A stretch of 64,000 nucleotides of DNA from Candidatus Levyibacteriota bacterium (GTDB lineage: Bacteria > Patescibacteriota > Microgenomatia > Levybacterales > UBA12049). The notes under the pieces were generated by a model. That model searched no databases. It was not told the DNA's origin and worked only from the letters and a program-made list of their open reading frames with translations. The position numbers and the translations under genes were made by a program. Shown piece after piece: positions 14,250 to 51,531 of the stretch; the first letter of the stretch is position 1; every line of letters starts with the position of its first letter. The stretch is taken from positions 501,549-565,548 of the forward strand of contig CAVRKE010000001.1 of NCBI GenBank assembly GCA_963722305.1, read 5' to 3'.

Positions 14250-14795
14250 ATGTTAGACATCATCAAAGCCCCCAATCCGATACTCTCTTTACAGGCAAAA
14301 CCGGTTGCCAAAGTTGATAAGGCGGTTTTGAACCTGATTGAGCAGATGGAACAGGCTCTTAATGCGGCTTTTGATCCGGTCGGAGTGGGACTGGCGGCGC
14401 CGCAAGTCGGTAAAAGTTTGCAGCTATTTATTGTCAAACCAACCAGTAAATCCCCTATCTCTGTTTTTATCAACCCTAAAATCACGGCCAAAAAGCCTTT
14501 GCTTTCCGAAAACGAAGAAAATAAAAAACCCTATAAACTTGAAGGCTGTCTATCGCTTAAGGATATTTGGGGCGAAGTACAAAGGTCACCGGAAATTGTA
14601 CTTGAATATCTGGACCAAACGGGAAAACTCCATAAACGAAAGCTCAGCGGTTTTATGGCCATCATTATCCAACACGAATATGACCATTTGGAAGGAATTC
14701 TTTTCCCCAAACGGGTGCTCGAACAAGGCGGAACACTCTATGAATCTCACAAAAACTCCAAGGGTGAGGACGAATTTGAAGAGCTTAAAATCTAG
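14250..14795 (+). CDS. def: Peptide deformylase
   Basis: Motifs GVGLAAPQVG, EGCLS and HEYDHLEG. Confidence 0.9.
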   Translation: MLDIIKAPNPILSLQAKPVAKVDKAVLNLIEQMEQALNAAFDPVGVGLAAPQVGKSLQLFIVKPTSKSPISVFINPKITAKKPLLSENEENKKPYKLEGCLSLKDIWGEVQRSPEIVLEYLDQTGKLHKRKLSGFMAIIIQHEYDHLEGILFPKRVLEQGGTLYESHKNSKGEDEFEELKI

Positions 14796-21737: not shown

Positions 21738-22475
21738 TTAGACTAAGTTTTCCTCCTTTCCAAAATATATTTCAGCCGGTGTTCTGTAATTAAGCGATTG
21801 GTGTTTTCTTTCATAATTGTAAAAGTAAAAATAGTTTTCAATGTTTTCTTTTGCTTCCAAAACAGTAGCGTATTCTTTTAAGTATACCTCTTCATATTTA
21901 ACACTCCTCCATAACCTCTCGGTGAAGATATTGTCCAGTGCCCGTCCCCGTGAGTCCATGCTGATTTTGACATTGTGATTTTCCCAGAGATCTGTCATCA
22001 GATGATCGGTATTTTGTGATCCCTGATCTTCATTAATAATGGTTGGTCTTCCGAATTTCTCAATTGCTTCAGTTGCAGCATCAAAACAAAAGTCTGTTTC
22101 AAGGGTAATTGAGAGCTTCCAGGAAACAACAAATCTGGTAAACCAATCAAGAAAGGCAGTTAAATATACAAACCCATGTTTCATCCGAATATACGTAATA
22201 TCTGTGCCCCAGATATGATTTGGATATCCTGCAACTACTCCTTTGAGTAAATACGGATAGAACATGTGTTGTTTATCGGGTTTACTCAAATTAGGCTTCG
22301 GATACAATGCCTCATAGCCCATTTCACGCATCAGGCGTTGTGCCTGTTTTCTGTTAACACCAACCTCTTTTGCCATACGTCTTGAACCATAAAAAGGGTG
22401 GGCAGTATATACCTCATCAATTCTGTTCATTAAAATGAGTGCCTCGGGTTTAACCGGTCTTGGCTGATAGTACAA
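21738..22475 (-). CDS. IS3-family transposase OrfB (copy 2)
   Basis: Protein identical to that of 1071..1808. Confidence 0.85.
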   Translation of the reverse strand: MYYQPRPVKPEALILMNRIDEVYTAHPFYGSRRMAKEVGVNRKQAQRLMREMGYEALYPKPNLSKPDKQHMFYPYLLKGVVAGYPNHIWGTDITYIRMKHGFVYLTAFLDWFTRFVVSWKLSITLETDFCFDAATEAIEKFGRPTIINEDQGSQNTDHLMTDLWENHNVKISMDSRGRALDNIFTERLWRSVKYEEVYLKEYATVLEAKENIENYFYFYNYERKHQSLNYRTPAEIYFGKEENLV

Positions 22476-25650: not shown

Positions 25651-26694
25651 TTATGCTGCTCTTTCTAACTGTCTGAAGATGGTTATCCCTTTATAGGCAG
25701 GAACAAAAGCGGTTATTCCCAAAGGGATTGTCGTTGTCTTAATAAAGCTTGTCGTTCCCCGGGGCTCCCCATCCTGTTCGAACGCAACTGGCTCTGCTAA
25801 ATTAATCACTGTTTGCCGTATTCGGCCCGACATTGCTACTAAAGGATTCTTCCTGCCTCTTAAAGCAAACGTGAGTAGTCCTCGGGGAAATATTTCCCAA
25901 CCTTCATCCCCTTCAATTAAAGTCATGTTTTGCCAACCGTCATTGACTTTGGCTCTGGGATGGAGTCTTCCACAAACATGCCATTGAGAATTACTGTATA
26001 TTACTTCCAGAAAGCGGATTGGTTTTGGCTTACCCCTCCTGCCAATAATTATTTCTCCCGACACTTCTCGATATGAACCTAAATCACGAAGACCGGCTTT
26101 AAAAAACGGCCATTTGCCGTCGCTCGTCTTTTCCTCTCCGTAAGCATGTACCATACTCATGGCGTGGGCTAAATAACCGGCATCTGCCACACCCAGATGT
26201 ATATCCTTGTTTCCCGATGAATCTTCTATCTCTCCAAAATCCATACCTTTTCTGACGCCGTTTTGCATGGCGAGGACTATTTCAGCGGCGCGTTTTGAGG
26301 CATGAAGGTCATGGTCGTAGTTATTGACGGTTCCGATTTGTACCGTGGCAATGGCTATTCTTTTTTCGGGACCGTTATCGAGAGCAGTAACCAAAGCCTC
26401 TCCTTTTTCTCTCTTTCTTTTCTCGGCATTAAGTACGCCTTTTGCTCCTTTATTAAGTCCTCCATCTCCGGTGGCCATCGCAATAATCGTGGCGCCTTTT
26501 TCAATGGACTTTTCCGTAAGTACTGTTTCGTCTCCCGCATGCTCCGTGTAACAAATGTCAATCAACCATCCGCCGGCCTGCAACCCTTTGGCGACATCAT
26601 TCACCAGTTTTAATCTTTCCTTCCTGCCCGCCTTTTCTCCACCATTAGGATTAACAATAAACGTAACGCGTTCGGGATTATCTCGTTCTAACAT
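25651..26694 (-). CDS. Diacylglycerol/lipid kinase family protein (DAGK catalytic domain, YegS/LCB5-like)
   Basis: FIVNPNGG at the N-terminus and the TGDGGLN (GGDG-type) motif. A TTGACA-N17-TATGAT promoter (26732-26704) lies 9 nt before the ATG. Confidence 0.6.
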   Translation of the reverse strand: MLERDNPERVTFIVNPNGGEKAGRKERLKLVNDVAKGLQAGGWLIDICYTEHAGDETVLTEKSIEKGATIIAMATGDGGLNKGAKGVLNAEKRKREKGEALVTALDNGPEKRIAIATVQIGTVNNYDHDLHASKRAAEIVLAMQNGVRKGMDFGEIEDSSGNKDIHLGVADAGYLAHAMSMVHAYGEEKTSDGKWPFFKAGLRDLGSYREVSGEIIIGRRGKPKPIRFLEVIYSNSQWHVCGRLHPRAKVNDGWQNMTLIEGDEGWEIFPRGLLTFALRGRKNPLVAMSGRIRQTVINLAEPVAFEQDGEPRGTTSFIKTTTIPLGITAFVPAYKGITIFRQLERAA

Positions 26695-29414: not shown

Positions 29415-30266
29415 GGGTTCTCCTACCCTGTTGGTAAAGCATGTAGCGTGTTTTGCAAGTAATGGTAAGGAGATTTAAACATTTCCGGTCTGGAAAATCT
29501 GCAGTAAAATTCACAGACATATTCTTCAAGCTTTTCTTCACTGACATGGTGGTACATCCTCCGGATAAAAGTCCTTAAAACGCCAAACATTCCTTCAATT
29601 TCAGAGGTGTTGGTAAACTCAAATTTCTTGTGAATGTCTGTCATATGGAATAGAGGATAATACTTATCAATATTTTTGTAAATAGTAGAGCCATCTGTAT
29701 TTAGTTGAGACTCTGGTTTAACGTAAGTTCTAACAAAATCAATTGCATCTTTCTTCGCTGGGGCATCAGAGGAGAGGATTTGATAAGCAAGCTTTCTGGT
29801 TCCTCTCTCCTTTCCCATGAGAAGTGCGGTATTACCAAATCTGCCAAAGTAGGCCTCATCAAGCTGGACAATATGCTCTAGAAGCCTCTGATCTCTTGGT
29901 AATTGTTCTCTGAACAAGTCAAAGTAATGTCTGACTCCCTTCTCAGACAAAGAAGTTAGATCTTCAGTCTGTTTAACCGGCATTTGTTTTGTCCAGCACC
30001 AGAGAATTAACCAAAATCTCTGCAAAGGAATCTTCACATTGCAAAGCCAGGTATGGGAAAACAGCGAGAACTTAATCTGACATTGTCTACATCTGTATCT
30101 TTTTTCAAAGCGAACAATATTCCAGGATTTGCACTTTGGACAGAAGATATTTCTACCAAAAACAGTTCTTCTGAGAAACTTTTTAATCTGGGCATCCGTA
30201 GGTACTTGTTTTAAATGGTACATAATCATATTCTAACGATTTTGTACCAACAGGGTGGGATTACCC
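29415..30266 (-). mobile_element. IS1595-family insertion sequence, intact copy B (852 bp)
   Basis: Same IRs as copy A. An 8-bp direct repeat ACAAATTC lies at 29407-29414 and 30267-30274. Confidence 0.9.
29423..30229 (-). CDS. IS1595-family transposase (intact)
   Basis: 268 aa. Zn-ribbon CPKCKS..RYRCRQC, with DDE-type residues in VQLDEAYFG, NTDGSTIY and TSEIEGMFGVLR. Confidence 0.9.
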   Translation of the reverse strand: MIMYHLKQVPTDAQIKKFLRRTVFGRNIFCPKCKSWNIVRFEKRYRCRQCQIKFSLFSHTWLCNVKIPLQRFWLILWCWTKQMPVKQTEDLTSLSEKGVRHYFDLFREQLPRDQRLLEHIVQLDEAYFGRFGNTALLMGKERGTRKLAYQILSSDAPAKKDAIDFVRTYVKPESQLNTDGSTIYKNIDKYYPLFHMTDIHKKFEFTNTSEIEGMFGVLRTFIRRMYHHVSEEKLEEYVCEFYCRFSRPEMFKSPYHYLQNTLHALPTG

Positions 30267-30665: not shown

Positions 30666-31325
30666 CTAAAGAAAAAGAAGCGAGAAGATGCCCATTGATG
30701 CACCAAGCATTGAGCCGCCGATGACGTCGGACAACCAGTGCTCCCCCAGATAAATTCTGGAAATGAACATTAAAGCCGCAAAAATAATGATCGAACAATA
30801 CAGCAATCGTTTTTGAACTTTTGAAAGCCGTTTCAGATGATAGATAATAAATATCAAAATCGTCGAAATGAACAATGTCCTGGCCAAATGACCGGAGGGA
30901 TATGATGAGCCGGGTTGGACATAAGAAGTGGGAAACTGGAAAGGAATATCATAGCGAAAGAAAAGGTATGGTGGTCCCGGATGAGCAACAAAAGCTTTCC
31001 CGAAAAGTTCTAAAAGATGGAAGAAGCCAAAAATACACAGAACAAAAATAAACCTCAATTTCCGAATAAAGAACCATAAAATAAGCAGTAATACACTCAC
31101 AATTTCAAAGCTTCCGACCAGGCTTAAAAGCGAAAAAAAGAAGTCAAAGCGTCTGGGAATTTTGTTTTGCAACCTGACCGTCGTATCAAAATCCAAGTGA
31201 ACAAAAAGGTTTTTGTGGACTAGGTAAGAGAACAAGATAAAAACAATGAACAATGAAATGCCAAAAATTGCCGGGAGCAGTTTGGGCGAAGTCCTGAGGG
31301 GTTGATCCGAAGGATTTTTCTTCAT
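30666..31325 (-). CDS. PAP2-family phosphatase (membrane)
   Basis: PAP2 motifs YPSGH and SRIYLGEHWLSDVIGG, with a multi-TM topology. Confidence 0.8.
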   Translation of the reverse strand: MKKNPSDQPLRTSPKLLPAIFGISLFIVFILFSYLVHKNLFVHLDFDTTVRLQNKIPRRFDFFFSLLSLVGSFEIVSVLLLILWFFIRKLRFIFVLCIFGFFHLLELFGKAFVAHPGPPYLFFRYDIPFQFPTSYVQPGSSYPSGHLARTLFISTILIFIIYHLKRLSKVQKRLLYCSIIIFAALMFISRIYLGEHWLSDVIGGSMLGASMGIFSLLFL

Positions 31326-35315: not shown

Positions 35316-35738
35316 GTGGCGAAGAAAATCAAGACAATAATTAAGATAAATATACCTGCCGGGCAGGCCACGCCTGCGCCACCGGTGGGAACGGCTTTGG
35401 GACCACACGGATTACCGATTATGGAGTTCGTCAAGGCCTTTAACGACAGGACTGCCGAGCAAAAAGGCACCATTGTTCCGGCTGTAATTACCGTTTACGA
35501 AGACCGCACTTTTTCGTTCATTGTCAAAAAATCTCCGATTGCGGAAATGATTAAAAAAGCGATGAACCTGGAGAAAGGTTCCGGCAAACCGGGGACAGAA
35601 TCGGCAGGAACATTGACTAAAACTCAGGCCGAGCAAATTGCCAAAGACAAGCTGGAAGATTTGAATACCGACGACGTGACTCAAGCTGTCAAAATTGTGG
35701 AAGGAGTCGCCCGCTCAATGGGCATCAAAGTACAATAA
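35316..35738 (+). CDS. rplK: 50S ribosomal protein L11
   Basis: MAKKIKTIIKINIPAGQATPAPPVGTALGPHG... is the canonical L11 N-terminal domain. GTG start. Confidence 0.95.
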   Translation: MAKKIKTIIKINIPAGQATPAPPVGTALGPHGLPIMEFVKAFNDRTAEQKGTIVPAVITVYEDRTFSFIVKKSPIAEMIKKAMNLEKGSGKPGTESAGTLTKTQAEQIAKDKLEDLNTDDVTQAVKIVEGVARSMGIKVQ

Positions 35739-35739
35739 T

Positions 35740-36639
35740 ATGGGAAAAATTAGAGTCAGAACTCTTGGCGACGAAAGCCAGGAAGAACAACAAAAAAACG
35801 AGGTCAAGAAAAAACACGAGGCTAAATTGAACGCAGCGAAATCCTCGACGAGAGGAAAGACGACCAAGGCTCCCGGCATGAAAGGCGGCGAAAGAGTGGT
35901 TTCGGTTGGCCCGAGCGAAGAAGAATTAGCCGCTTTGGATAATAAAGGGGTGGCAGAAGAGGGAGGGCTCCCGACAGCGCGCAGTGAAGAGAGCACTGGC
36001 GGGAAGGAAACCTCTGACAGGACCCCGACAAAAAAGCCTAAAAAGGAACAAAAAAACTTCCATTCGCAAAAATACGAGAAACTGTTAGCCGAAGTTGACC
36101 GCAGCAAGACTTATCCTTTAAACGAAGCGCTGGCGCTTTTGCAGAAACTGCAGCGGAAATCTTTTGACGAAACCGTTGAATTGCATGTTAATACCTTAAC
36201 CAGTGGTATTTCCGGCCAAATTACTCTTCCCCACGGCACCGGTAAAACCACCCGCGTCGCCATTGCCGACGACAAAATAATTGCCGAAGTCGAAAAAGGA
36301 GTGATTAATTTTGACGTTTTGGTGGCAGAACCAAGTATGATGCCAAAACTGGCCAAGGTGGCTAAAGTACTAGGACCAAGAGGCTTAATGCCAAACCCCA
36401 AAAACGGCACGATTTCGCCAAAGCCGGAAGAAGTGGCCAAAAAATATGCCGGCGGACAAATGAACTTTAAAACCGAGACCAAAGCACCGATTATTCACTT
36501 AACTGTCGGCAAAATTTCCTTTGGTCCGGAAAAATTAACCGAGAACATTGAAGCATTAATTGCCGCCATCAAAAAAACTAATATCGTAAACGTTACCTTG
36601 AAATCTACAATGAGCCCGGGGCTGAAGATAAAGATCTAA
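35740..36639 (+). CDS. rplA: 50S ribosomal protein L1 with a ~110-aa Lys/Glu-rich N-terminal extension
   Basis: The canonical L1 core begins near KYEKLLAEVDRSKTYPLNEALALL and includes ..LPHGTGK.. and ..LGPRGLMPNPK... The start is set at the ATG at 35740, 1 nt after the rplK stop. Confidence 0.85.
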   Translation: MGKIRVRTLGDESQEEQQKNEVKKKHEAKLNAAKSSTRGKTTKAPGMKGGERVVSVGPSEEELAALDNKGVAEEGGLPTARSEESTGGKETSDRTPTKKPKKEQKNFHSQKYEKLLAEVDRSKTYPLNEALALLQKLQRKSFDETVELHVNTLTSGISGQITLPHGTGKTTRVAIADDKIIAEVEKGVINFDVLVAEPSMMPKLAKVAKVLGPRGLMPNPKNGTISPKPEEVAKKYAGGQMNFKTETKAPIIHLTVGKISFGPEKLTENIEALIAAIKKTNIVNVTLKSTMSPGLKIKI

Positions 36640-36684
36640 GCCTCAATTTGACAATTTTTTACCTCAGTAGTATTATCCGCAAGT

Positions 36685-36942
36685 ATGCCATGCCTACATG
36701 AATTGGGTTTAGTACGAAGAATTAAAAATACAGGCACACATATCGCACGATCGATTGACAGATTTGAACTGAAGGTTGAAGGGCTTAGTTCAAGGCAAAA
36801 AAGACAAATTTATTTTGTTATAGTAGCATTTATGTTAGCTACTGTAGGTTCCATTGGCGCAGTTGCAGGTAATGACTTAGGCGCTGCGATGCCTTTCTCC
36901 GGAGCTGCCGCATCGATATTTGGTGCAGCCATGAACTCCTAA
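36685..36942 (+). CDS. Small hypothetical membrane protein (85 aa)
   Basis: A TTGACA-N17-TATTAT promoter (36648-36676) lies 8 nt before the ATG. Gly/Ala-rich C-terminal TM segment. Confidence 0.45.
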   Translation: MPCLHELGLVRRIKNTGTHIARSIDRFELKVEGLSSRQKRQIYFVIVAFMLATVGSIGAVAGNDLGAAMPFSGAAASIFGAAMNS

Positions 36943-36989
36943 CTCGGCCTATTGACAACCAACCACCTCAGCATTAAAATCCGCTCAAT

Positions 36990-37844
36990 ATGATAAGAGA
37001 ATTTGGAACATTTCGACCTCTGTCTCCCAGCCTAATAGGTGATCCACAATCACCGGGACAAGCTAGTCCTACTAAAGATTCTGATGGCCGCTTAGCTCCG
37101 CAGGAGCGCCGTATTAAACTGCTTGCTGCTCTTTGCGAAAAAGGACTGTTTAAAGCGGTCGCTGCCTTGGAAAAAGAACAACCGACGAATGATCTTAAAT
37201 ATCGTTCCTGGGAATTAGTCAGGCACGGTAGAGCGGCAGAAGTGGTTGGAACAGTTTTAGGCCCGGACGGAAAACCAATACGTTACAACGGTTTTGAACC
37301 GTATTTTCTCGGTCTTCCGGCAGAGAAAATTGTCAAGCGGGAAATCGAATTAGGCCATCATCTTGCAGCTGAACTTAAGTTGGAACATCCAAAGGGCAGA
37401 ACAATAGAACTAAATCAACAGGAACGGGAAGTTATAAAAGCTTTACGCGGTGAGGAAATATCCCATTCCCACATTATTCAGGTATTAAAAGACCTTGATT
37501 GCGTTTTTCAAGTTGTTCATAATAGGGCAAAAGGCGGTTTAATTTGGGAAGGCATCCGGTTCCGGGACCACACGCATGACATTGTTGAATCAAGCCAACC
37601 TTACGAACCAGTCGTTAAAAATACGGTTGTTCATGTAGAAAACGCGGAAGACAGAAACGCTCTTATCTTACTGGGTGAAATCGGCATTATAGGCCATCCA
37701 GCACTTAGAGAAATCGTTGAGGGTATTCCTTTTAGATTTGAAGAAGAACCAAAACCTGTTATAGTCGTAGACGAGGCAACACATCGAAGGCTTAACGCCG
37801 CGGTGCATACTGGTGAAAAAGGACCGCCTGATGAACTTGCCTAG
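36990..37844 (+). CDS. Hypothetical protein (284 aa)
   Basis: A TTGACA-N17-TAAAAT promoter (36952-36980) lies 9 nt before the ATG. No recognised motif. Confidence 0.55.
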   Translation: MIREFGTFRPLSPSLIGDPQSPGQASPTKDSDGRLAPQERRIKLLAALCEKGLFKAVAALEKEQPTNDLKYRSWELVRHGRAAEVVGTVLGPDGKPIRYNGFEPYFLGLPAEKIVKREIELGHHLAAELKLEHPKGRTIELNQQEREVIKALRGEEISHSHIIQVLKDLDCVFQVVHNRAKGGLIWEGIRFRDHTHDIVESSQPYEPVVKNTVVHVENAEDRNALILLGEIGIIGHPALREIVEGIPFRFEEEPKPVIVVDEATHRRLNAAVHTGEKGPPDELA

Positions 37845-37908
37845 AATCCCTTTCCGTTCGGTTTGACAATAAACCGCCAACACAGTAAAATCCCCACATT
37901 ACTAAATT

Positions 37909-40089
37909 ATGAGCGTAGAGCAGCACAGACGCACCAACAGAGAGACTCTTGCCGAGGCTTTTTCGCTTGAAAAACAAGCCGCGGGCGCAATAGCGGGGAG
38001 ATTACATTTAATACCGCTACATGAAAGACAAGAAACGGAAACTGTTAAGCTGACTTTTGCATCATTCGGAGTAGTAGGCGCATGCGGCCAAACCGGCCGG
38101 CTTTATATCGAGAGGACTGCTCTTGGCTCCCCCACTCTTCCCATTACTGCAGTTGATTTGGTAGAGCCTACGAAAAGAGGAATAGAATTCCCCGACAGCG
38201 TTAAATTTTCTAGCGATTTAGCTTCAATTTTGCAAAGAAAAGACAGACCCGAAGCTTTTATTCTTGCGACCACTAATCCCATTGATAAACTACTTGAAAC
38301 TTTTAGAGATAACCTTGACGACAGACATATCACTTTGATTCTTCCTCAAAATGGAGTTGACGTTGTACCAAAAGCTCAAGAAATATTAAAAGGTAAAAAC
38401 GTAACTTTAATAAGAGCAAGCTTATTTACACCGGTTGATACTGAGCCGGATGGAAAAATTAAATATCCGGAGGACAAATTAAGAATAGGGCTTTCTTTAG
38501 TCAGGCCGGAAGGAGATATTGCCGATCCCGAAAAAGAGAAAGAACTTCAAAAGGCGGTAGAAACGTTTAGACGAGGAGGTTTTGACGCTAAAATTTTTGA
38601 GAACTATGTCAGCATGGAATGGACAAAGTTAGTTTTGAATGCGGTTGGCATAACAGGAGGTATTGTCGGCATTTCACCAAAAGAAGTTTACAATGACCAC
38701 GCCCTGTATCTACTGGAAACGCAGGCGCTGCACGATAGATTAAGAATTTTGGAAGCAGCCGGAATTAAATTAGAACATATTCCCTGGGGCGGAGCCGCAC
38801 TTTTACCTACATATGATTCTCTCCCTGGACTAATAAGAAAAAGTCATTTGGCGCAATTCCTTTATGGCCAGAAAGTGATTGCCGGCAGAGGGAATAAGCC
38901 TTCATCGGTTGGAATCAATATTCAAAAAGGAACCCCAACTGAGGGAATTACTTATCTTGAACCATTTGTCAAACTTGGAGAAACGGTTGGACTGCGATCA
39001 ATTGTCGATGAAGCGATGATTGAAATCATTCAAGGAAATTATACATTTATAACTCGTCGCAAAAACGACGTTGATACTCAAGAAAGAAAAATTGATTTGG
39101 CAGATTTTAGCCTCGAAGAGAGAAGAACGCTTTTGTTTGAAACTATTAGAAAACTAAGCCAAAAACCGCCAACCCGCCTGGACCGACTTGAAGGCAGAAT
39201 ATTTGCCGAAGGAGCGAAAAGATTTCTTCGTTACAGGATTATTGATCCACGCAACTACAGAGAGCGAACAGCTGAAGTTTTGCATCCAAAAAATGCTGAA
39301 GAAAAACCAGGTGAGGTGGTTGAAGGATTAAATCATGGAGACATGTCTGACTCTATTCACGGAATGGAATTAAATTTCACGATAGATGATATTGCCCATG
39401 CCTATGGCATGGATACTTTTTGGCATTACGATCGAACAAGAGGAAAAAAATATACCAGACTTTATGCTTGGGTAGAAGCTAAAGTGACAGCGGCAACCGG
39501 TATGCGAACCTACCACATCTTAAGGGAAAAAGATTTTGAATATTACCGAACCCACCGCGGAGCTATAGAAGGAAAAGCTCCTGAAGAATATAGCGGCCCA
39601 TCCTACAGAAAAATCAGGGAAAGACTTAAAAAAGAAGGCGGAATTTTTCTAATTGCTCCAGAGGCAACCAGAACTTTAACCGGCGAGCTAAATAGAGCTC
39701 AACCTGCAGGACTATTTTTAGAAACAAAGGACTTCAAGGAACGGGGCGTTTATCTTCCGGTAGGACTTGTCCCGACTTCTATCAAAGTCCCTTATCCCGA
39801 GAGAAGAAGTCTCGCCCAAAAAGCTAAACGCTTTTTGGCTAAAACAGAAATTAGAGTAGGAAAGCCTGTAACCTACGCTGAAATTATCCAAGATATGACA
39901 ATTGTCAATGAAGGCATAAAAGCTGTAAATAACCAAAGAGGAGAAAATGAGCAACTCGAATTAATGACCATAAGCGACATGATGATGCTTTATATCGCTA
40001 GGGTTCTTCCTCCACAGTATTGGGGATACTATAAAGAATACGTTCAATTCATGCCAAAAAATAATGGCAACGCTCCCCTAGCCACCTAA
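37909..40089 (+). CDS. Fusion protein: ketopantoate-reductase (ApbA/PanE)-like N-terminal half plus PlsC-type acyltransferase-like C-terminal half
   Basis: The N-terminal half has a Rossmann motif VVGACGQTG and MEWTKLVLNAVG (the W.KL..N motif of PanE). The C-terminal half has NHGDMSD (H-x4-D) and IAPEATRT (an FPEGTR-like motif). A TTGACA-N17-TAAAAT promoter lies at 37863-37891. Confidence 0.5.
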   Translation: MSVEQHRRTNRETLAEAFSLEKQAAGAIAGRLHLIPLHERQETETVKLTFASFGVVGACGQTGRLYIERTALGSPTLPITAVDLVEPTKRGIEFPDSVKFSSDLASILQRKDRPEAFILATTNPIDKLLETFRDNLDDRHITLILPQNGVDVVPKAQEILKGKNVTLIRASLFTPVDTEPDGKIKYPEDKLRIGLSLVRPEGDIADPEKEKELQKAVETFRRGGFDAKIFENYVSMEWTKLVLNAVGITGGIVGISPKEVYNDHALYLLETQALHDRLRILEAAGIKLEHIPWGGAALLPTYDSLPGLIRKSHLAQFLYGQKVIAGRGNKPSSVGINIQKGTPTEGITYLEPFVKLGETVGLRSIVDEAMIEIIQGNYTFITRRKNDVDTQERKIDLADFSLEERRTLLFETIRKLSQKPPTRLDRLEGRIFAEGAKRFLRYRIIDPRNYRERTAEVLHPKNAEEKPGEVVEGLNHGDMSDSIHGMELNFTIDDIAHAYGMDTFWHYDRTRGKKYTRLYAWVEAKVTAATGMRTYHILREKDFEYYRTHRGAIEGKAPEEYSGPSYRKIRERLKKEGGIFLIAPEATRTLTGELNRAQPAGLFLETKDFKERGVYLPVGLVPTSIKVPYPERRSLAQKAKRFLAKTEIRVGKPVTYAEIIQDMTIVNEGIKAVNNQRGENEQLELMTISDMMMLYIARVLPPQYWGYYKEYVQFMPKNNGNAPLAT

Positions 40090-40510: not shown

Positions 40511-42185
40511 TTAAGGTTGACTTCTTTGAGGTAAAGTTGGCAATGAATCTTTCGTTGCTTCCCATTCTTTAAGAATCTGAATAACTCTTTGGTTCTCACC
40601 TGCTGTGGGATCTAATATAGCCTCTTCCAAGTTAAGCATAGCCACGTTATACAGTTTGCCAAACTCTCTAACAAAATTTGCATCATGTCCCTTGCTCAGA
40701 GACCGTTCATGTGAGATTTCATGAAGATAAGTTTCAAGTGCAGTTGAAAACGCTTGATGGATTCGTTCTTGTGCTTCCCACAAGAATTCAGGCGTATAAT
40801 GCCCATGGAAAATACTTTTTTCCTTAGCAGCGCTAAACATCCAGATTTGAGGAGTTTCCTTAATTCCCATTATTTCTCCGGCAAATTCCCTTAGCAATCC
40901 CGTTCTTGTGTTTTCAGCTTCTGAAGGCTCAATTCTAAAATGACTCATTAGATTTTTAACAGCTTCTGCCGTTGTAGTCATTCCCAAATCTGCCATTGCA
41001 GGATGACAAAGAACATAACCTGCTCCTTCTAGAGCTAGGTCATAGTCACCAAACGCCTCGTTGCTTATGGCGACATATTGAGAAGGAAATTCTAGCGGTT
41101 GTCCGTGATATTTTTCGACATAAGCATCCACCATCGCTCCCAATAATTGCCCTGGTATTGAAATATCGTAAATTGAATTCATGAAGTCTTCCCCCATAGC
41201 CAATGCGTTTGCCATGCCCTTTTTTGTCCGATCGGGATCGTCTACGCTTTCTATGTCTACCGATTTAGGACCTCCTGGAACCAATGGTTTTTTTCTTCCA
41301 TACCAAAAATCGGGATTATTGACTATAGTGCTTCGTATTTCTTCCTCTGTCATTCCAGCTACAATTTTCGGAATAACGTCTTCTTCTATTTGTCCTTTTG
41401 TTACAGCTCCTCGGTCTCGATCCGCACTTAAAAACTTTTCCCTTAGTCCATAGTGTTATGTCTTCAATTGCATTGTAACCTCCGCCACTCTTATCACCCA
41501 GAAATAGAAGATCTTGACGAAAATGACGTCTTTGTCCAGCTTCGTAAATATTACCTTTTTTGCCTTTGTGGAGCTTAAAGCCTCCAACTTCGGGATTGCT
41601 ATATGTGGGATTTCTAAAGTCAGGATTTTCGCTTGAATAGAAAAGATTTCTTGTTTCAAGAAATGTTTTTGCCATTCCTGGTGTTGGAAACTTAACACTA
41701 AACCTACTTCCGGCTTGATAATGAACTCTTTCTACTCTTGCATAGAGGCCTTTCGTGGGTTCATCGCCAATTCTATAATCAGGAACATCATTTAGATAGT
41801 AGGTTAAACGCCAGTCTCCCGATTCGTGCACTACTTGATTAGCTCCCATTCTTGTCAACATGATTAGCGCGGCGACTTTTGCTCCTTCCCGATATCCTCC
41901 CGCAGATGAATCATCCATAGATTTTGTTCCTCCGCCCATATGCATTAAATGTGAATAGTCGTATTCACCTGAACCGCCTATTAAAACTTGGACTCCGTGT
42001 TCGGTTTTGGTTTGAGAATGGATAACTCCGTCTAGTGTGCCACCTTGCCCATCAAAGAAGTTTTGCCATACATCTCGAGCGGTTTTTTCATCATCCCAAG
42101 GAACGTTGTATGTTGTAAGTAAGCCAAGATATCTATTTTCAATTACCGAAGACCTTATTTCGCCTGATGGTATTGGATCTGGCAT
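40511..42185 (-). pseudogene. Frameshifted ~558-codon gene: GHKL-ATPase-like N-terminus, HExxH-containing C-terminus
   Basis: Track ORFs 41316..42185 and 40511..41353 overlap. The downstream frame is open from 41455 and reads ..LREKFLSADRDRGAVTKGQIEEDVIPKIVAGMTEEE.., so a +1 shift near GGGAAAAG (41442-41435) joins them. Motifs: ARDVWQNFFDG (N-box-like), GGYREGAK, LHEISHERS (HExxH). Confidence 0.55.
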
Positions 42186-42263
42186 AGCAATCTAATTGTT
42201 GTATATTACGAATGTAATTGCAAGCATATCTCGAGCATAATCCATGCTTGAGTTTTATTCTTT

Positions 42264-43115
42264 CTATGTTCCCGTCCAAATCCCAGCAATCATTCCCTTG
42301 CTTTGTAATAGATCAATTGTGGTTACTGCAAAATTTAGATGGTGTTCAAAAAGCGTTTCTTCAACTTTTTGTTTAATAAATTTTAAGAGAAACTTTTCCA
42401 TTTGCTTATCTGGAAGTACAAAAAGAATAATTGTATTAGCTGCTGTTGCTCCTTTGTAGTCTGAATATTCAATATATTGTTGTACTCTGTATCTTAAATA
42501 GTACCTTGGAGTCTTTTCTCCAATTAATTCAAGGTAATATAAATAGTCTTCTTTATCCTTAACTTGTTTTTTAAGCTTATTAATAGCTGTTGTTAATTTA
42601 ATCTTTTTCTTTATATAGTCGTCAATGATTGCAGGAGATGTTTTTAAAGATATTGCACAATCAGGATATGGTTCTATTATTACATCGTCTTCGTAGAGCT
42701 CCTGTTTTGTTTTAAAGAAGTTTAACGCATTAAGATCTTCAGTTTTACGTAGAGTGTCTAGGTAAAGATTGGCAATTACTGAACATCTACTTCTAAACTC
42801 TTCACTTCTTTCTTTTTCTCTGTAGAATTTATGAGCTGTATCATAGTCGATGTTATATCTAACAAACCTGACACCGGTTGGCGCTAAGAAATACACTGCC
42901 GGTTGAAGATTGAAAGGTGTTTTTCTGTCATAGATACGGTATAGATAGTCATTTTCTACTAAGTTTTTAAGCCATACGTTAATTCTTTTATAGTCCTTAT
43001 GTTTCATTATGGTTTGTATTTGAATTCTGTTTAGGAATCTGAATTTATGAATTAGTTTTAGTATTTCTTTTTGTTTTTCTGAGATGTAGGGTAGTTCGTA
43101 AGACCATTTTTTCAT
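42264..43115 (-). CDS. Replication-relaxation family-like protein (wHTH N-terminus); plasmid/integrative-element type
   Basis: 283 aa and AT-rich. The N-terminus ISEKQKEILKLIHKFRFLNRIQIQTIM resembles the wHTH of replication-relaxation proteins. The call is from memory of the family only. Confidence 0.4.
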   Translation of the reverse strand: MKKWSYELPYISEKQKEILKLIHKFRFLNRIQIQTIMKHKDYKRINVWLKNLVENDYLYRIYDRKTPFNLQPAVYFLAPTGVRFVRYNIDYDTAHKFYREKERSEEFRSRCSVIANLYLDTLRKTEDLNALNFFKTKQELYEDDVIIEPYPDCAISLKTSPAIIDDYIKKKIKLTTAINKLKKQVKDKEDYLYYLELIGEKTPRYYLRYRVQQYIEYSDYKGATAANTIILFVLPDKQMEKFLLKFIKQKVEETLFEHHLNFAVTTIDLLQSKGMIAGIWTGT

Positions 43116-43494
43116 ATGTTTTTTGTTTTTAAGAGGCAGTTATTGTTTTTAGTTTAGTTTTGAGGGCAGAGGTTTTATTGTTTAGTATTATATCATTTTA
43201 GCGGATTTTAGAGTTATATCTTTATTTATATTTATATAAATAGAAAAGAGGGAATAACCCAGGATGTGATTTTAGACATTATTCGGCTAATTTAATGGAA
43301 AAATAGACACCACCCCCGCCCTAGCCGAATAGGGCAAAAAGAGTACTTACGTAGGTACTATTTGAAAGCTATGATATACTTTAATTTAATGAAAAAGAAA
43401 CTGTTGGAGAAAGATAAAAAATTATTAGAGTTTGTAAAGATGGGTGGACGTGAGGGAGCAAAAAAAGATTTCCTATCTTTACTTAAAAAAGCAG

Positions 43495-44385
43495 CTAAAC
43501 CTTTAAAGTCTTAACCTCTGCAACTTGTCTTAGTAGCATTTCAAACATTTTTCCCTGATTGTTTCTCTGATTATATCGCCAAGCATATTCGTTGACATAA
43601 CTTTGGAGATATTTCTTTGAAACAACTCTATAAACTCCCGTAATTCCTCTTTTTAACTGAGACCATACCCCCTCAATAGTATTATTGTGAATAAATCCTC
43701 TTACATATTCTCCGCTTGAATGATTAACTTTGTCATGGTCGTAGTATCCAAAGTCATACAGGTTTTTATACGAAGCAAGTTCATCTGTCATGACATGGGC
43801 TTTAGGACTGACATTTTGTTTTATCTGGTTTATCAGCGTCCATTTTCCAGTATTGGGAATATGTTTTAAGTATGCCTTGCCACCCCTTTCAACTGCTCCC
43901 CAAACTACTTCCTTAGGTATTTCGTTGAAGTTTGGTTTTGTAGCTCTATTCTTACCCTTACCACCGATATATGTTTCGTCTATTTCAACAATCCCGCTTA
44001 AAAGTCCACCTTCCGTTTCTGCCATTAACATTCTGATTTGTTTAAACATTCTCCACGCCGTCTTATATGTTACCCCTAACATTCTCTCCAATTGTTTGGC
44101 CGATGTTCCGGATCTAGTTGTAACCATTAAATACATTGCAAAAAACCAAAGATCAAGTGGAGTACTGGTTTTTTCAAAGATAGTACCGGCCAGTGGATAG
44201 ATCTGAAACCCACAATACTTACAAGCATATGAGGTTCTATTGGTTACGGGATAGAAGACTGAAAGACTTTTACATTTAGAACATTCCATCTCATCTGGGA
44301 ATCTTAAGCGTTTAATAGCTTCCAGGCACTGTAAATGTGTACCGTATTTTCGCTTAAATTGTCTGAGGCTAAACTTCTTATTCAT
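43495..44385 (-). CDS. IS1595-family (ISXO2-like) transposase, a second, different element
   Basis: Zn-ribbon CSKCKS...CKYCG. DDE-type residues in VEIDETYIGG, VMTDELASY and NNTIEGVWSQLKR. The element ends could not be defined with confidence. Confidence 0.8.
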   Translation of the reverse strand: MNKKFSLRQFKRKYGTHLQCLEAIKRLRFPDEMECSKCKSLSVFYPVTNRTSYACKYCGFQIYPLAGTIFEKTSTPLDLWFFAMYLMVTTRSGTSAKQLERMLGVTYKTAWRMFKQIRMLMAETEGGLLSGIVEIDETYIGGKGKNRATKPNFNEIPKEVVWGAVERGGKAYLKHIPNTGKWTLINQIKQNVSPKAHVMTDELASYKNLYDFGYYDHDKVNHSSGEYVRGFIHNNTIEGVWSQLKRGITGVYRVVSKKYLQSYVNEYAWRYNQRNNQGKMFEMLLRQVAEVKTLKV

Positions 44386-44609: not shown

Positions 44610-45452
44610 ATGGATACAAATACCAAAATCAGCACCAACCGGCCCACCAACACTAAAGTTACGGCGGGCAGGCAGAAGAAAATTGAAGTCGTTGCCAAGC
44701 TTAATGAAAAGTTAGCCAAATCCAAGGCAATTATCTTCACCAACTACACAGGGGTCACCCACAAGCAGCTGGAAGCCCTGAAAAGAGCGATTAAGCCAAT
44801 GCAGGCGGAATATGTCGTCGCCAAAAATTCTTTGATTCTCAGGGCTTTGGACGAAAACAAAATCAAGCTTGAGGGCGAAAATCCGCTGCAAGGCCCAACC
44901 GGAACGCTTTTGATTTATGCCGACTATATTGAACCGCTCAAGCAGCTGGCCAAAACCATGAAGGAACTGGGGCTTTTAAACATTAAGCTTGGTATTATGG
45001 AAAATCAGTTTTTAAGCGGCGAGCAAATCTTAAAAATTTCCGCTCTTCCGCCGAGAGAAACCTTACTCGCTCAAGTTGCCGCCGGCTTAAAGTCCCCTAT
45101 TTCCGGTTTACATCGGGCTTTGAACTGGAATTTACAGAAATTAGTGATGACACTTAAGGCTGTTGCCGATAAAAAACCCGCAGTCGCTGCAGTTCCGGTT
45201 CAAACTGTTCTGACCGCGAATCCGACAGAACCCGAATCAGTCATGGCGGAAACCGTAGCCGAAAAAACTGCTGAAACAGCACCCGCGGAACCTAATCAGC
45301 CGGCGGCCGAACCAAATATTACCGAGCCTGAAACAATCGGGGCAGAAACCGAAGCAGAAGTAGTCGCCGAACAACCAGAGAAGGATAATCCTACAATTGA
45401 AGCAGAGAAAAGTGTCGCGTCAAACGCGATTGGCGAAGGGGGTGAGAATTGA
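44610..45452 (+). CDS. rplJ: 50S ribosomal protein L10 with a ~110-aa Ala/Glu/Pro-rich C-terminal extension
   Basis: L10 core (..[32 protein letters not shown]..). It lies upstream of rplL and overlaps it by 4 nt. Confidence 0.85.
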
Positions 45453-48720: not shown

Positions 48721-51531
48721 ATGAAGAAAAAAATAACCTTTGGCCTGCTCTTATTTTTTTTGTCTGTCAGTTTATTTTGGAATTTACCCGAGGTTAAAGC
48801 AGCCGGTTTTACCAGCGCCTATCTAAGGCTGAATAACCAAACTCCAAGCTCGGCTCTTGCGGGCACTGTTTGTGCCCAACCTTCTTCACCGGGTGCCGGC
48901 AGCGAAAGTAAAATCAGCCTTTCTTTTCCCGATGATTTTACAGTTTCGGGAAACACCAGCAACTGGACTACTAATGTTACCAATCTTCCTTCCGGTTCCA
49001 CACCCTGGCCATCAATCGGCAACCCCGCCGTCAGTATTTCTGGCCAGTCTGTCACATTCTCAAGCGGCGATTTAACCGCCGGCACTATTTACTGCTTTAA
49101 TTTTAACGGCGCTTCCTCGACCACCGGCGCTGTCGGCAATGATAAGACCGGTGCTCTAACAAGCAAAAATTCTTCGGATGTTATTATTGACCAGTCTGCT
49201 TATGCTGTCTCTATCGTTTCCAGTAACCAAATTGGAATTTCGGCCACTGTCTCGCCCGCGGCCTCCGACCTGCCGATCTCGATTGAATCAACTACTGTCG
49301 GCAACAATTTTCCGCAAAACACCATTTTGGACTATAAAATTACCTACGGTTCATTAACGGTCGGACCTTTCCCCTTAACTATTCAGGCCGAGTGGTCGCA
49401 AGGAACAATTGATGGTAGCCCTACGCCCTCAGTTGACCTTTTAAATTACGTCATCGGCAGTGCTTCGAATGCTTATGACGCAGCTCCGGCCGTAGTTGAT
49501 ACTACCAACCGAACTATCACCTGGACCATTAATTCTTTTCCCGGCAATACTGTTGGCCAGACGGTTACTTTTGAGCTGGAAACCAATGATTCTTATACCG
49601 GCAGCGAAGTTGTCAGTTTTAATGTGGCGGCCAGAAGCATGTCGGAGACAACGATTACTCCCGACCAGACAGTTAGCCAAACCTATCTTTACAGCACAGG
49701 GATTGAGCCAACCCCCACTCCCGCCCCCCCAACGGCCACGCCTACTCCCGGTACAAGTAGCAGCACCAGCACTATTACGCCAACCACCACTCCCACTGTC
49801 GCTTCCTCGCCCAGCCTGGCTTTTTCGGCGATTTCAATTCAGTCTCTATCGCAGTCCCAGGCCCAAATCGACGTTTCCACCACCAACAATGCAACTATCA
49901 CCGTCCAATATGGCACTGGCATCAATGCCCTTTCACAAAGTATTACTACTTCTTTGCCGACCAGCGAAGCTTTGCTAACCCTCCCAAACCTCACAGCCGA
50001 TACCAATTATTATTACCGCGTCACTGCCAAGGATGCTTTTGGCAACGTTATTAAGTCCGACATCTTTACTTTTAAAACTGCCGTTATCTCCCAAGCTACG
50101 CTGGCTGACCTGCAATCACTGATTGTCACCAGCAACAACAACATTTTACTTAACCCACAGACCGAAAAAATCACCACCGGTAATACCGTTTACTCGGTGG
50201 TTATTCCGCAGTTAAGCATTTTTGAAATTCATTTTTCGCTGACAAAATACGTGCCGATAAAAAATATCCAGGTAATCATCGAGAACAAACACGTTTTAGG
50301 CGCCAACACCTTTACTCCGCAGACGGCTGCTTCTAATTTTGTCGATTTGGTAGAAACCCAACCGGGGGTTTTCACCGGAAGGCTGTTAAGTCAACAAACT
50401 CCGGGAGTCTACGAGCTGTATGCCAAAATAGTCGACTACAACGGCAATATTACACTACAAAAAATAACGGACATCGTGGTTGTGCCGGAATTTAAGGTGC
50501 TTGAAAAAGGCACCAATAACCCCATCGAAGCTGCCAGAATACTGCTTTATCTGTATAACCCGACGACCAGAATTTACGAGGTTATTTCTCCGCAAATCCT
50601 GCCTATTAATAACCCTTTGTTTTCCCAGCCTAACGGAGTCGTCCCCATTGTTTTGCCCAAAGGGCAATACAAGGCGGATATTTCAGCCATTAATTACCAG
50701 TCCCAAACTGTGACGTTTGCAGTCGGGGCCACTTCTGGAAACTATCCGACTGTCTACCTGCAAAATCAACCATTCAGTCTGACTAATTATGTCAATTTCT
50801 TTCTTACCACGCTTTCCGATTACGTAATATCAAGCCAACAAACTTTAAGCCAGTTTTCTGCTTCAAGCCGCCTATTTGCCTTTTTGGAAGGCTTAACTTT
50901 ACTCGGCTTTGTCTTTTTAGCTTTTCTCTCCTTTTCGGCCAGGACGCACATTTCCCTACCCTATATTCCTTACTTTTTCTTCCATAAACTCAAGCAGCTA
51001 TTGTTTAAAGAAAATTCGCTGACCATTGGCAAAGTTTACGACGAGGTCACTCAAGCTCCGGTTTCAAAAGCACTGGTGTATATTATTGATGCGAAAAAGA
51101 ACAGCCTGATAGCGCATCTTCGAACCAACCGGCTGGGCGAATTTTACTGCCGAAAATTCGCAGCTGTCGACAAAATAAAGATTACCGTCGTCAAAAAAGG
51201 TTTTATCGCTAAGGCCCCGCTTGAATATAGCCAAAAAAGCTTGAGTGTTATGCCGATTAGCATCGCTTTGGAGAAAGATCTTACTTATCGAAAATCGGTG
51301 ATTGAGCTTTTGCTTTTGGCTATTGAGAACATTTTTGGTGCTTTTATGGAATTTACTCTGGTTCTGACAATTATTCTGGAGCTGTATTTTATCCCACCCT
51401 TAGGAATTCTCAAAGTGTCTCCTTTCCTGGCATTATCGATTTTTAACGTTGTTCTTTTAATTCTTTACCTCTACAAACCACGCAGTTTGATGTTCAAAAA
51501 TCCTCTGATAGAACAAGATCTTGCTGCTTAG
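48721..51531 (+). CDS. Large surface protein (936 aa): signal peptide, Thr/Pro linker, FN3-like module, carboxypeptidase-regulatory-like modules, C-terminal TM helices
   Basis: Signal peptide FFLSVSLFWNLPEVKA|AG. A PTPTPAPPTATPTPGTSSSTSTITPTTTPT linker. ..TADTNYYYRVTAKDAFGN.. is FN3-like. ..GKVYDEVTQAPVSKALVYIID....TNRLGEFY is CarboxypepD_reg-like. Confidence 0.65.
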   Translation: MKKKITFGLLLFFLSVSLFWNLPEVKAAGFTSAYLRLNNQTPSSALAGTVCAQPSSPGAGSESKISLSFPDDFTVSGNTSNWTTNVTNLPSGSTPWPSIGNPAVSISGQSVTFSSGDLTAGTIYCFNFNGASSTTGAVGNDKTGALTSKNSSDVIIDQSAYAVSIVSSNQIGISATVSPAASDLPISIESTTVGNNFPQNTILDYKITYGSLTVGPFPLTIQAEWSQGTIDGSPTPSVDLLNYVIGSASNAYDAAPAVVDTTNRTITWTINSFPGNTVGQTVTFELETNDSYTGSEVVSFNVAARSMSETTITPDQTVSQTYLYSTGIEPTPTPAPPTATPTPGTSSSTSTITPTTTPTVASSPSLAFSAISIQSLSQSQAQIDVSTTNNATITVQYGTGINALSQSITTSLPTSEALLTLPNLTADTNYYYRVTAKDAFGNVIKSDIFTFKTAVISQATLADLQSLIVTSNNNILLNPQTEKITTGNTVYSVVIPQLSIFEIHFSLTKYVPIKNIQVIIENKHVLGANTFTPQTAASNFVDLVETQPGVFTGRLLSQQTPGVYELYAKIVDYNGNITLQKITDIVVVPEFKVLEKGTNNPIEAARILLYLYNPTTRIYEVISPQILPINNPLFSQPNGVVPIVLPKGQYKADISAINYQSQTVTFAVGATSGNYPTVYLQNQPFSLTNYVNFFLTTLSDYVISSQQTLSQFSASSRLFAFLEGLTLLGFVFLAFLSFSARTHISLPYIPYFFFHKLKQLLFKENSLTIGKVYDEVTQAPVSKALVYIIDAKKNSLIAHLRTNRLGEFYCRKFAAVDKIKITVVKKGFIAKAPLEYSQKSLSVMPISIALEKDLTYRKSVIELLLLAIENIFGAFMEFTLVLTIILELYFIPPLGILKVSPFLALSIFNVVLLILYLYKPRSLMFKNPLIEQDLAA

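Follow-up and report, generated by a model that had tools for sequence, protein, structure and literature searches.

The locus described here raises the question of why a bacterium should carry, in one polypeptide, an oxidoreductase resembling ketopantoate reductase (KPR) and an acyltransferase resembling PlsC, and what such an enzyme might make. The gene lies on the forward strand of a 64,000-nucleotide (nt) stretch of a Candidatus Levyibacteriota contig (the window, by which this whole stretch is meant), at positions 37909 to 40089. Its product very probably has both activities, reductase and acyltransferase, and uses them within a single acyl-lipid pathway. A reaction can be put forward tentatively, at somewhat less than even confidence: dihydroxyacetone phosphate (DHAP), NAD(P)H and acyl-ACP (ACP, acyl carrier protein), or acyl-CoA, would be converted to 1-acyl-glycerol-3-phosphate, with substrates, acyl donor and step order being presumptive.

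A protein of two modules

An earlier note, made from the letters of the window, had taken the gene to encode a PanE/ApbA-like reductase fused with a PlsC-type acyltransferase and had quoted four motifs. The open reading frame (ORF) is present at exactly these positions and contains all four motifs (at residues 55, 236, 474 and 582), and the joining of the two enzymes is upheld by family profiles, motifs and folds. The parts of the protein are as follows, with lengths in amino acids (aa).

37909 to 40089, + strand: complete ORF, ATG to stop, 726 aa, reductase-acyltransferase fusion protein (ORF call and family alignment)
37909 to 38046, + strand: N-terminal ~46 residues, weakly conserved, predicted local confidence (pLDDT) < 50, partly missing from relatives
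38047 to 39108, + strand: reductase module, residues ~47-400, a Rossmann domain and a helical ApbA_C-type domain with the ketopantoate-reductase / D-mandelate-dehydrogenase fold (Foldseek, profile search)
38071 to 38097, + strand: VVGACGQTG, residue 55, dinucleotide-binding motif GxxGxxG, with G57, G60 and G63 invariant in the family
38341 to 38358, + strand: LPQNGV, with N148 in the column of the catalytic-site KPR Asn (QNG/HNG motif)
38614 to 38649, + strand: MEWTKLVLNAVG, residue 236, W-x-K-L-x-x-N helix, in which the invariant K240 and N244 align with the KPR catalytic Lys and Asn
38884 to 38967, + strand: GRGNKPSS...TPTEGITYLEPF, in which R-x-N and T-E-x-x-Y align with the KPR segment RENY..TEVDYIHG that bears the catalytic Glu
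39094 to 39228, + strand: two basic helices that link the modules, residues ~396-440, 10 K+R against 6 D+E, with too little hydrophobicity for a membrane span
39181 to 40056, + strand: acyltransferase module, residues ~425-716, with the alpha/beta fold of glycerol-3-phosphate acyltransferases (GPAT) and lysophospholipid acyltransferases (LPLAT), PlsC-type
39328 to 39351, + strand: motif I, LNHGDMSD, residue 474, with the catalytic dyad H476-x4-D481
39652 to 39675, + strand: motif III, IAPEATRT, residue 582, a variant of FPEGTR(S) with E585 and R588 kept and Gly replaced by Ala
39751 to 39774, + strand: motif IV region, YLPVGLVP, aligned with PlsC VLPVSIWGT

In Pfam scans of the window protein alone, ApbA_C stays below threshold (21.4 bits, the gathering score being 22.7), the ApbA N-domain (PF02558) is undetected, and the acyltransferase family PF01553 has no match at E ≤ 1; a phmmer search of the PDB sequences with the same protein gave no match. 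The single sequence therefore comes close to having no significant domain match in either half, which is the outcome that the earlier note had set against its own reading. This is overturned by the family, as relatives match both domains: the ApbA_C (PF08546) threshold is passed by some at 31.7 and 27.3 bits, and that of PF01553 (gathering score 23) by P0005 at 42.4 bits and P0007 at 34.9 bits. In per-member scans of ten relatives, ApbA_C was found in eight and PF01553 in seven at E ≤ 0.01 (best E 7.5e-11). The identity proposed for the fusion holds only at the level of the family and of predicted structure.

A chimeric or misassembled ORF is ruled out. A protein identical to the window product (P0001) is encoded on a 608 kb NCBI contig, a further copy occurs in an independent Logan assembly, and the fused family comprises at least 30 clusters at 50% identity.

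Extent and conservation of the family

Relatives were gathered by a word-indexed search over 5.8 billion proteins, which recovered ten, and by a HMMER profile search run exhaustively over 1.84 billion representatives at 50% identity, which returned 113 proteins at E ≤ 1e-30. When 155 retrieved proteins were sorted by local domain profiles, 34 had the reductase followed by the transferase (31 of them full-length fusions), two were clear fusions in the reverse order, 46 had the reductase only (a class that includes three diverged permuted fusions and P0065), and 73 had the transferase module alone. The survey of distribution suggested by the earlier note thus yields permuted and split forms besides the fused clusters. 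The reverse domain order is seen in P0025, P0061 and the P0006 group. N-terminal extensions of about 250 aa in P0006, P0030 and P0035 align to the transferase domain (hhalign probability 90%, E 1.8e-6) with xHxxxxD in register. P0061 is another permuted fusion, distinct from these, in which the motifs NHIGDND and FPTGTRS are fully canonical.

Conservation was tabulated across 32 fusion clusters, namely the 31 full-length fusions and P0065, which was added through its match to the full-length profile. In the reductase module GxxGxxG, (L)PQNG, K-x3-N, R-x-N and a Glu are nearly always kept, and one Lys is invariant; on the transferase side the motif I His is aligned in 31 of the 32, the H-x4-D spacing in about 30, and EG[TG]R is retained. 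The sole active-site deviation of the window protein is the Gly to Ala change in motif III (EATR). Both modules retain the pattern expected of working catalytic centres, rather than that of a decayed or purely regulatory domain.

An inert reductase half, kept as an NAD(P)H-sensing regulatory domain or as a scaffold for the acyltransferase, could account for the GxxGxxG that stands in place of the classical KPR GxGxxG, and TrkA-like regulatory Rossmann domains do occur among the weaker profile matches. The KPR catalytic Lys, Asn and Glu are, however, invariant or nearly so in fused, permuted and stand-alone forms alike, and an inert half is highly improbable.

The functional link between the modules is supported by three independent features of the family. 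Fusions occur in both orders. In one relative (locus L021) the pair is split: a 381-aa reductase gene, 43-50% identical to the reductases of the window clade, is followed after a gap of 5 nt by a 262-aa ORF that has no Pfam match but is recognised by the transferase profile (E 3.9e-36) and carries NHHGKAD and NPEGTRS. In a neighbour-joining tree of the reductase modules, which is rough and has no support values, fused, permuted and solo or split forms are interleaved; in it the fused clade of the window protein has the split group with L021 as its sister, a placement that is indicative only. Taken together, both-order fusion, adjacent split genes and an interleaved tree indicate that the modules work together. 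No partner module was found within 8 kb of the stand-alone reductases at L004 and L007. The reductase module is always paired with an acyltransferase, or found in a lineage that has the pair.

The family occurs mostly in small-genome bacteria of the Candidate Phyla Radiation (CPR) type, and the lineages of relatives include Daviesbacteria, Chisholmbacteria, Roizmanbacteria and Curtissbacteria; together with the 608 kb contig these point to the CPR for the window organism as well. It also extends beyond the CPR: on a 2.8 Mb contig of a metagenome-assembled genome labelled Chloroflexia, a complete fusion (L003, 7636-9621) adjoins a TetR regulator and an FAD monooxygenase and is broken by two frameshifts, which reflect either long-read error or a pseudogene. 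The label 'uncultured Gammaproteobacteria' of the genomes carrying L002 and L006 looks doubtful. Gene order 3′ of the fusion in L006 matches that of the Daviesbacteria locus L005, and L002 has SecDF/DUF3048/GH125 synteny with L008 and L022.

The reductase module

The reductase module is recognised by the local domain profile at E 5e-142. In the full-length AlphaFold2 model the mean pLDDT is 75 and that of the reductase half 80-90; the input alignments for AlphaFold were shallow (10 and 32 sequences), and the inter-domain geometry is unreliable (pTM 0.56). The AlphaFold and Foldseek comparison recommended by the earlier note recovers the two-domain KPR fold in this half. The matches include 8ix9, 5hws, 2ofp and 1yjq at target-normalised template modelling (TM) scores of 0.69-0.71 and E values of 2e-11 to 1e-8, and also D-mandelate dehydrogenase 8wl1 at a target-normalised TM of ~0.70. 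When the module profile was compared with the PDB, the best match was the KPR of T. kodakarensis (5hws, E 7e-16), in which the segments QNG, W-x-K-x-x-x-N and T-E-x-x-Y line up with those of the module.

The catalytic residues of E. coli KPR, which are taken here to be N98, K176, N180 and E256, have aligned counterparts in N148 (equivalent to Asn98), K240, N244 and the Glu of 'PTEG' in the window protein. All four are conserved family-wide, and the Glu is invariant in alignment A2. The position that matches the carboxylate-binding Ser of KPR varies across the family, as read from the profile alignment.

One account of these similarities would be a true PanE, serving the synthesis of pantothenate, CoA and the ACP cofactor and only loosely tied to an ordinary PlsC through phosphopantetheine. 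The T. kodakarensis match points in this direction, as do the name 'ketopantoate reductase' given to some members by IMG and the phosphopantetheinyl transferase (PPTase) and ACP genes that neighbour the fusion in one clade. Yet every PanE equivalog or subfamily cut-off is missed widely: the window protein scores 28.7 bits on NCBIfam TIGR00745 (apbA_panE), where 141.35 is required, and no family member tested reaches that cut-off. Repeated independent fusion, permutation and tight split pairing with one acyltransferase family would be unexpected for metabolically distant enzymes, and no pantothenate pathway (pan) genes were seen in any of the loci examined. By the NCBIfam cut-offs the reductase half is judged not to be a PanE orthologue, and a pantothenate role for the fusion is very unlikely.

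The acyltransferase module

In the C-terminal module the H-x4-D dyad, motif III and the LPLAT alpha/beta fold were each found in the window protein. The His and Asp of motif I are invariant in alignment A3. Distant relatives show canonical NHxSHxD and YPEGTRS in the same columns as the NHGDMSD and APEATRT of the window protein, so that the window motifs are not chance matches; among relatives motif III reads as canonical PEGTRS or EGGRS. The NCBIfam cut-off of TIGR00530 (102.95) was reached by none of the proteins tested, which were five stand-alone acyltransferases and the fusions P0001 and P0005. Some relatives of the transferase module (P0166, P0167, P0172 and P0170) are fusions to cytidylate kinase (PF02224) and to HAD hydrolase, further cases in which this acyltransferase family is linked to nucleotide- or lipid-metabolism enzymes.

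Structural comparison places the predicted transferase half with GPAT/PlsC-type enzymes. The listed values are 14.4 for the soluble glycerol-3-phosphate (G3P) acyltransferase of squash (1iuq, 216 residues aligned), 13.2 for human GPAT1, 13.1 for tafazzin, 12.4 for T. maritima PlsC, 9.8 for PatA and 9.5 for LpxM, and the next match, of an unrelated fold, stands at 6.2. In the profile comparison with the PDB, PlsC (5kym) was matched over motifs III-IV (E 3.8e-14), whereas over motifs I-III the matches were 1iuq, 1k30 and 8ia1, all soluble GPATs of plastids (E ~1e-12). The transferase thus appears at least as GPAT-like (1iuq, GPAT1) as it is lysophospholipid acyltransferase-like, and is nearest, by a small margin, to the soluble acyl-ACP:G3P acyltransferases.

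The protein has no hydrophobic stretch compatible with a transmembrane segment, and none was found in any family member (Kyte-Doolittle, 19-residue windows); the top score in the window protein, 1.23, lies within the reductase core. The PlsC-like N-terminal helices that embed in the membrane were not found in it either. The best explanation is that the fusion protein is soluble, or peripheral on the membrane at most.

These features bear on the suggestion of the earlier note that the enzyme is of the lysophospholipid type and serves lipid remodelling or salvage. An acyltransferase it appears to be; the resemblance to GPAT is as strong, however, and there is no membrane anchor, so that acylation of a glycerolipid backbone is as likely as remodelling.

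The genomic slot and the neighbourhoods of relatives

In the window lineage the gene resides in the rplKAJL ribosomal-protein cluster. The features that define its slot are as follows.

35695 to 36639, + strand: rplA (ribosomal protein L1), upstream edge of the conserved slot (Pfam and synteny)
37863 to 37891, + strand: sigma-70-type promoter-like site, TTGACA-17-TAAAAT, 11/12 matches, 18 nt 5′ of the ATG (consensus scan only)
40511 to 44385, − strand: lineage-specific insertion between the fusion gene and rplJ, outside the enzyme, with a GC dip to 0.33
44610 to 45452, + strand: rplJ (ribosomal protein L10), downstream edge of the conserved slot (synteny)

The relatives P0002, P0003 and P0004 (58, 43 and 38% identity) all lie in the arrangement secE-nusG-rplK-rplA-fusion-rplJ-rplL, or in its visible part, and the rplA-rplJ slot is kept in four relatives at 38-58% identity, with the split pair occupying it in L021. 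Throughout the window clade the gene, or the gene pair, has its place between rplA and rplJ. In loci of the Daviesbacteria type the fusion is directly 5′ of rpsF-ssb-rpsR, the stop codon of the L005 copy overlapping the start of rpsF. The promoter-like site, which ends 18 nt before the ATG, would give the fusion gene its own promoter and a short leader; an Rfam scan of the window found four tRNAs only, with no leader or riboswitch close to the gene. The slot, the rpsF overlap and the near-consensus promoter fit a constitutively expressed housekeeping gene.

That the fusion might be cargo of a mobile island was considered in view of the Replic_Relax gene, the IS1595 element and the GC dip nearby, and was rejected: relatives keep the slot without those elements, and the insertion block is absent from L012, L013 and L021. 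The insertion itself, on the reverse strand, holds unknown ORFs of 280 aa and 289 aa, which share 38 nt, together with a Replic_Relax gene (42264-43115) and an IS1595 transposase (43495-44385) whose TTGACA-17-TATAAT promoter is perfect; the GC dip spans 42001-44000. Between rplA and the fusion (36685-37844, + strand) there are ORFs of 85 aa and 284 aa, with near-consensus promoters at 36648-36676 and 36952-36980; a different unknown ORF occupies this position in L012 and L013. Neither these two upstream ORFs nor the ORFs of 280 aa and 289 aa belong to a Pfam family or have a homologue in related loci, and all four are treated as unrelated to the enzyme. The L1 protein encoded at the edge of the slot has a low-complexity Lys/Glu-rich N-terminal extension of ~130 residues and a TTG start as listed, and the L1 of L015, 66% identical to it, has a similar extension.

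Other neighbourhoods touch on lipid metabolism. In L002, L008/L009 and L022 the fusion is neighboured by genes for a PPTase, a HAD hydrolase and a 110-aa ACP, with ACP and PPTase genes adjoining it in L002, L008 and L022. In L011 a FabH-like gene lies 20 nt 5′ of the fusion and a gene for a MIP (glycerol-facilitator-type) channel adjoins the fusion, and in L012 and L021 a FabH-like gene follows rplL in the rplJL cluster. Judged against the E. coli FabH reference, the Cys-His-Asn triad is intact in L011, its Cys is kept in the partial ORF of L012, and Cys is replaced by Gly in L021. No FabH-like gene was found within the 64 kb window.

Such neighbours could place the reductase on the side of the acyl donor. 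The module would then act on a 3-ketoacyl group made by the neighbouring FabH-like condensing enzyme and bound to ACP or CoA, and the transferase would move the 3-hydroxyacyl (or acyl) group to an acceptor, in what would resemble a minimal ACP-dependent pathway to a lipid or a lipid-like metabolite. Besides the FabH-like, ACP and PPTase genes, this reading can draw on a weak 3HCDH_RFF match in one family member and on the membership of the KPR fold and the 3-hydroxyacyl-CoA dehydrogenases in one structural superfamily. The conserved QNG, K-x3-N and T-E are nevertheless those of the 2-oxoacid reductases of the KPR family and not of 3-hydroxyacyl dehydrogenases, the FabH-like protein of L021 has lost its active-site Cys, the window has no such gene, and FabH-like protein, ACP and PPTase could equally feed acyl-ACP to a GPAT-type transferase. 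A donor-side role is unlikely.

The same genes bear on the premise of the earlier note that the organism lacks de novo lipid synthesis. This premise is doubtful in view of the FabH-like, ACP and PPTase genes adjoining the fusion in relatives and of a carboxyltransferase-like gene in the window, which bears on the organism's capacity for malonyl-CoA. The latter (8180-10384, − strand) encodes a 734-aa acetyl-CoA-carboxylase carboxyltransferase-like protein (ACCA E 5.5e-26; Carboxyl_trans) in an unusual location, flanked on one side by mreB (10428-11531) and on the other by a gene for a HAD-type nucleotidase together with mreC, mreD and the PBP2 gene.

Proposed function

The N-terminal module, with its ketopantoate-reductase fold, would reduce a carbonyl group at the expense of NAD(P)H, and the C-terminal module, an H-x4-D enzyme from the GPAT/LPLAT superfamily, would carry out O-acylation. 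They would catalyse consecutive steps in one pathway, most likely the formation of the glycerolipid backbone, and in the window lineage the gene would be a constitutive housekeeping gene. A ketone reductase welded to an O-acyltransferase would most simply make or finish a hydroxylated acceptor. This might be achieved in either of two orders: the reductase could make G3P, which the transferase would acylate, or the transferase could acylate DHAP and the reductase would then reduce the acyl-DHAP.

Lysophosphatidate is suggested as the product by the likeness to GPAT over motifs I-III, by the phosphate-type Arg and basic residue of motif III and by the lack of a membrane anchor. In GPAT/LPAAT enzymes the motif III Arg and the basic residue after it bind the phosphate of G3P or lysophosphatidate, and EG[TG]RS[RK] is present in most family members. 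The ACP, PPTase and FabH-like neighbours could supply acyl-ACP, and the housekeeping site would suit membrane biogenesis. The MIP channel gene of L011 and the lipid kinase and PAP2 phosphatase genes of the window also count in favour of this route.

Several observations weigh against a route from DHAP. The reductase is nearest to 2-oxoacid reductases (KPR and D-mandelate dehydrogenase), and G3P dehydrogenase is absent both among the 60 PDB profile matches listed and among the top 50 Foldseek matches, KPRs dominating both. Confidence in this route is kept short of even because the reductase resembles 2-oxoacid reductases more closely than any G3P dehydrogenase. The missing G3P dehydrogenase matches make it less likely that the module is itself a GpsA, though not that it might fulfil the role of one. 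In the window protein (EATRTL) and in its closest relative P0002 (EGTRSL) motif III is not followed by the basic residue. The ACP/PPTase/HAD neighbourhood is confined to one clade, and most gene neighbourhoods are uninformative, including those of the stand-alone acyltransferases L017 and L019 and of the reductases L004 and L007. The substrate proposed for either module is a candidate, as no test identified one. The 'GRxN' segment had also been entertained as a GpsA-like 'SRNR' phosphate-binding motif, and was dropped as a diagnostic when the KPR of T. kodakarensis was seen to carry the same R-E-N.

The kinship with 2-oxoacid reductases can be turned into a reading of its own, in which another keto compound, a 2-oxo acid or a small ketone, is reduced and then O-acylated to an unusual acylated small molecule or envelope lipid. 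The reduction might, for example, give glycerate from hydroxypyruvate, a D-2-hydroxy acid from a branched 2-oxoacid, or glycerol from dihydroxyacetone. The nearest structures and profiles, KPR and D-mandelate dehydrogenase, are both 2-oxoacid reductases, the variable position of the carboxylate-binding Ser suggests a changed substrate, and the permuted forms lie in envelope or glycoconjugate clusters (GT2, PMT, MptA_B and Polysacc_synt neighbours in L010; FemAB, DegT and a Mur ligase in L020). Residence in ribosomal-protein clusters in two clades is at odds with a non-housekeeping product, however, and we know of no pathway that requires an acylated small molecule of this kind as a housekeeping function; the motif III Arg, with the frequent basic residue after it, favours a phosphorylated acceptor. 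An acceptor of this other kind is improbable.

Should the step from DHAP to lysophosphatidate hold, the fusion could represent a previously unrecognised bacterial route to lysophosphatidate, in which a soluble ACP-dependent DHAP-reductase/acyltransferase replaces GpsA together with PlsB or PlsX/PlsY in CPR bacteria of the Microgenomates type. This wider proposition is possible but doubtful.

Other features of the window

Two further genes of the window concern lipids: a soluble lipid kinase of the diacylglycerol (DAG)-kinase type (DAGK_cat; 25651-26694, − strand) and a PAP2-family phosphatase (30666-31325, − strand). Together they suggest that glycerolipid handling is present, and they may serve glycerolipid or polyprenol-phosphate handling in a small genome.

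The window is rich in insertion sequences, with three integrases of the rve type and three IS1595-type transposases, whole or fragmentary, in 64 kb (1071-1808, 1883-2443, 16003-17028, 21738-22475, 29423-30229 and 43495-44385). The integrases at 1071-1808 and 21738-22475 have equal Pfam scores and are probably copies of one element. A 3017-aa ORF (51623-60676, − strand), with no Pfam family other than a faint Kelch match, adjoins a 936-aa protein (48721-51531); in L021 a 933-aa protein of similar size and position follows the ribosomal cluster. Two peptide deformylase genes, at 14250-14795 (+ strand) and 14792-15379 (− strand), are convergent and overlapping and lie near fmt (17138-17983).

Significance

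The origin of membranes in the CPR (Patescibacteria) is an open question, and the fusion is a concrete, cloneable candidate for membrane-lipid assembly. Probst et al. 2020 (PMC7242380) described CPR bacteria as having fatty-acid-based membranes but neither a complete lipid pathway nor ACP-using enzymes, and PlsB and PlsX were missing from those genomes that they screened in detail. The genes for ACP, PPTase and FabH-like proteins found beside the fusion in CPR-type loci bear directly on the reported absence of ACP-using enzymes. If conversion of DHAP to lysophosphatidate proved true, it would be a new entry point to bacterial phospholipid synthesis and would supply the missing first committed membrane-lipid enzyme in organisms thought unable to build their own lipids; metabolic reconstructions that score such genomes as lipid-auxotrophic would change. 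If the function differs, the fused, permuted and split forms would still mark an undescribed reductase-acyltransferase pathway.

The earlier note was not aware of this combination having been characterised, and this appears right: no description or test of the fusion was found in the literature on the fusion, on bacterial acyl-DHAP reductases or on CPR acyltransferases. The architecture has, however, already been named automatically, some members bearing the IMG pipeline label '1-acyl-sn-glycerol-3-phosphate acyltransferase/ketopantoate reductase' and one being named as an acyltransferase by NCBI. Each half is a member of a familiar superfamily and yet falls outside the curated PanE and PlsC/AGPAT definitions.

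Comparison with known systems

On the transferase side the closest comparison is the soluble GPAT ATS1 (squash 1IUQ/1K30; 8IA1). Like the fusion it lacks a transmembrane segment, whereas no reductase is fused to it. Identity is ~12%, and the likeness is at the level of profile and fold only: no counterpart of the N-terminal helical bundle was identified in the fusion, the K193/H194 phosphate-binding pair is not visibly conserved in the family as read from the profile alignment, and similarity at the level of orthology was not found. Homologues of ATS1 at the BLAST level have been reported solely in Chlamydiae, plants and algae (PMC5716074). This restricted distribution makes the fusion transferase only a remote relative of ATS1. 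Compared with PlsC (T. maritima 5KYM) and other LPLATs, the window protein has neither a PF01553 match nor the hydrophobic N-terminal motif that embeds in the membrane, and over motifs I-III the fusion is closer to GPAT than to PlsC.

On the reductase side, KPR and the D-2-hydroxyacid dehydrogenases (1KS9/2OFP, 5HWS, 8WL1/5X20) have in common with the fusion the two-domain fold (TM ~0.70) and catalytic residues in register. They differ from it in sequence (12-18% identity), in the dinucleotide-binding motif, which is GxxGxxG in the fusion, and in the Ser for the pantoate carboxylate, which the fusion family does not conserve; the PanE cut-offs, as stated, are missed.

The eukaryotic DHAP pathway is a functional parallel to the proposed reaction, as an acyltransferase (GNPAT) and an NADPH-dependent acyl-DHAP reductase (Ayr1/PexRAP) together yield lysophosphatidate. 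The reductases that act on acyl-DHAP in eukaryotes are separate polypeptides of the short-chain dehydrogenase type, and in the literature searched the pathway was not found outside eukaryotes. Other bifunctional acyltransferases are Aas, which is joined to an acyl-ACP synthetase, the land-plant enzymes GPAT4/6, which carry a HAD phosphatase, and the Cmk-PlsC and HAD-PlsC fusions. To our knowledge none of these architectures uses a KPR-fold reductase. What Aas, GPAT4/6, the Cmk- and HAD-PlsC fusions and the DHAP pathway do share with the fusion described here is the coupling, within a chain or within a pathway, of an LPLAT-fold transferase to an enzyme that makes or consumes its substrate.

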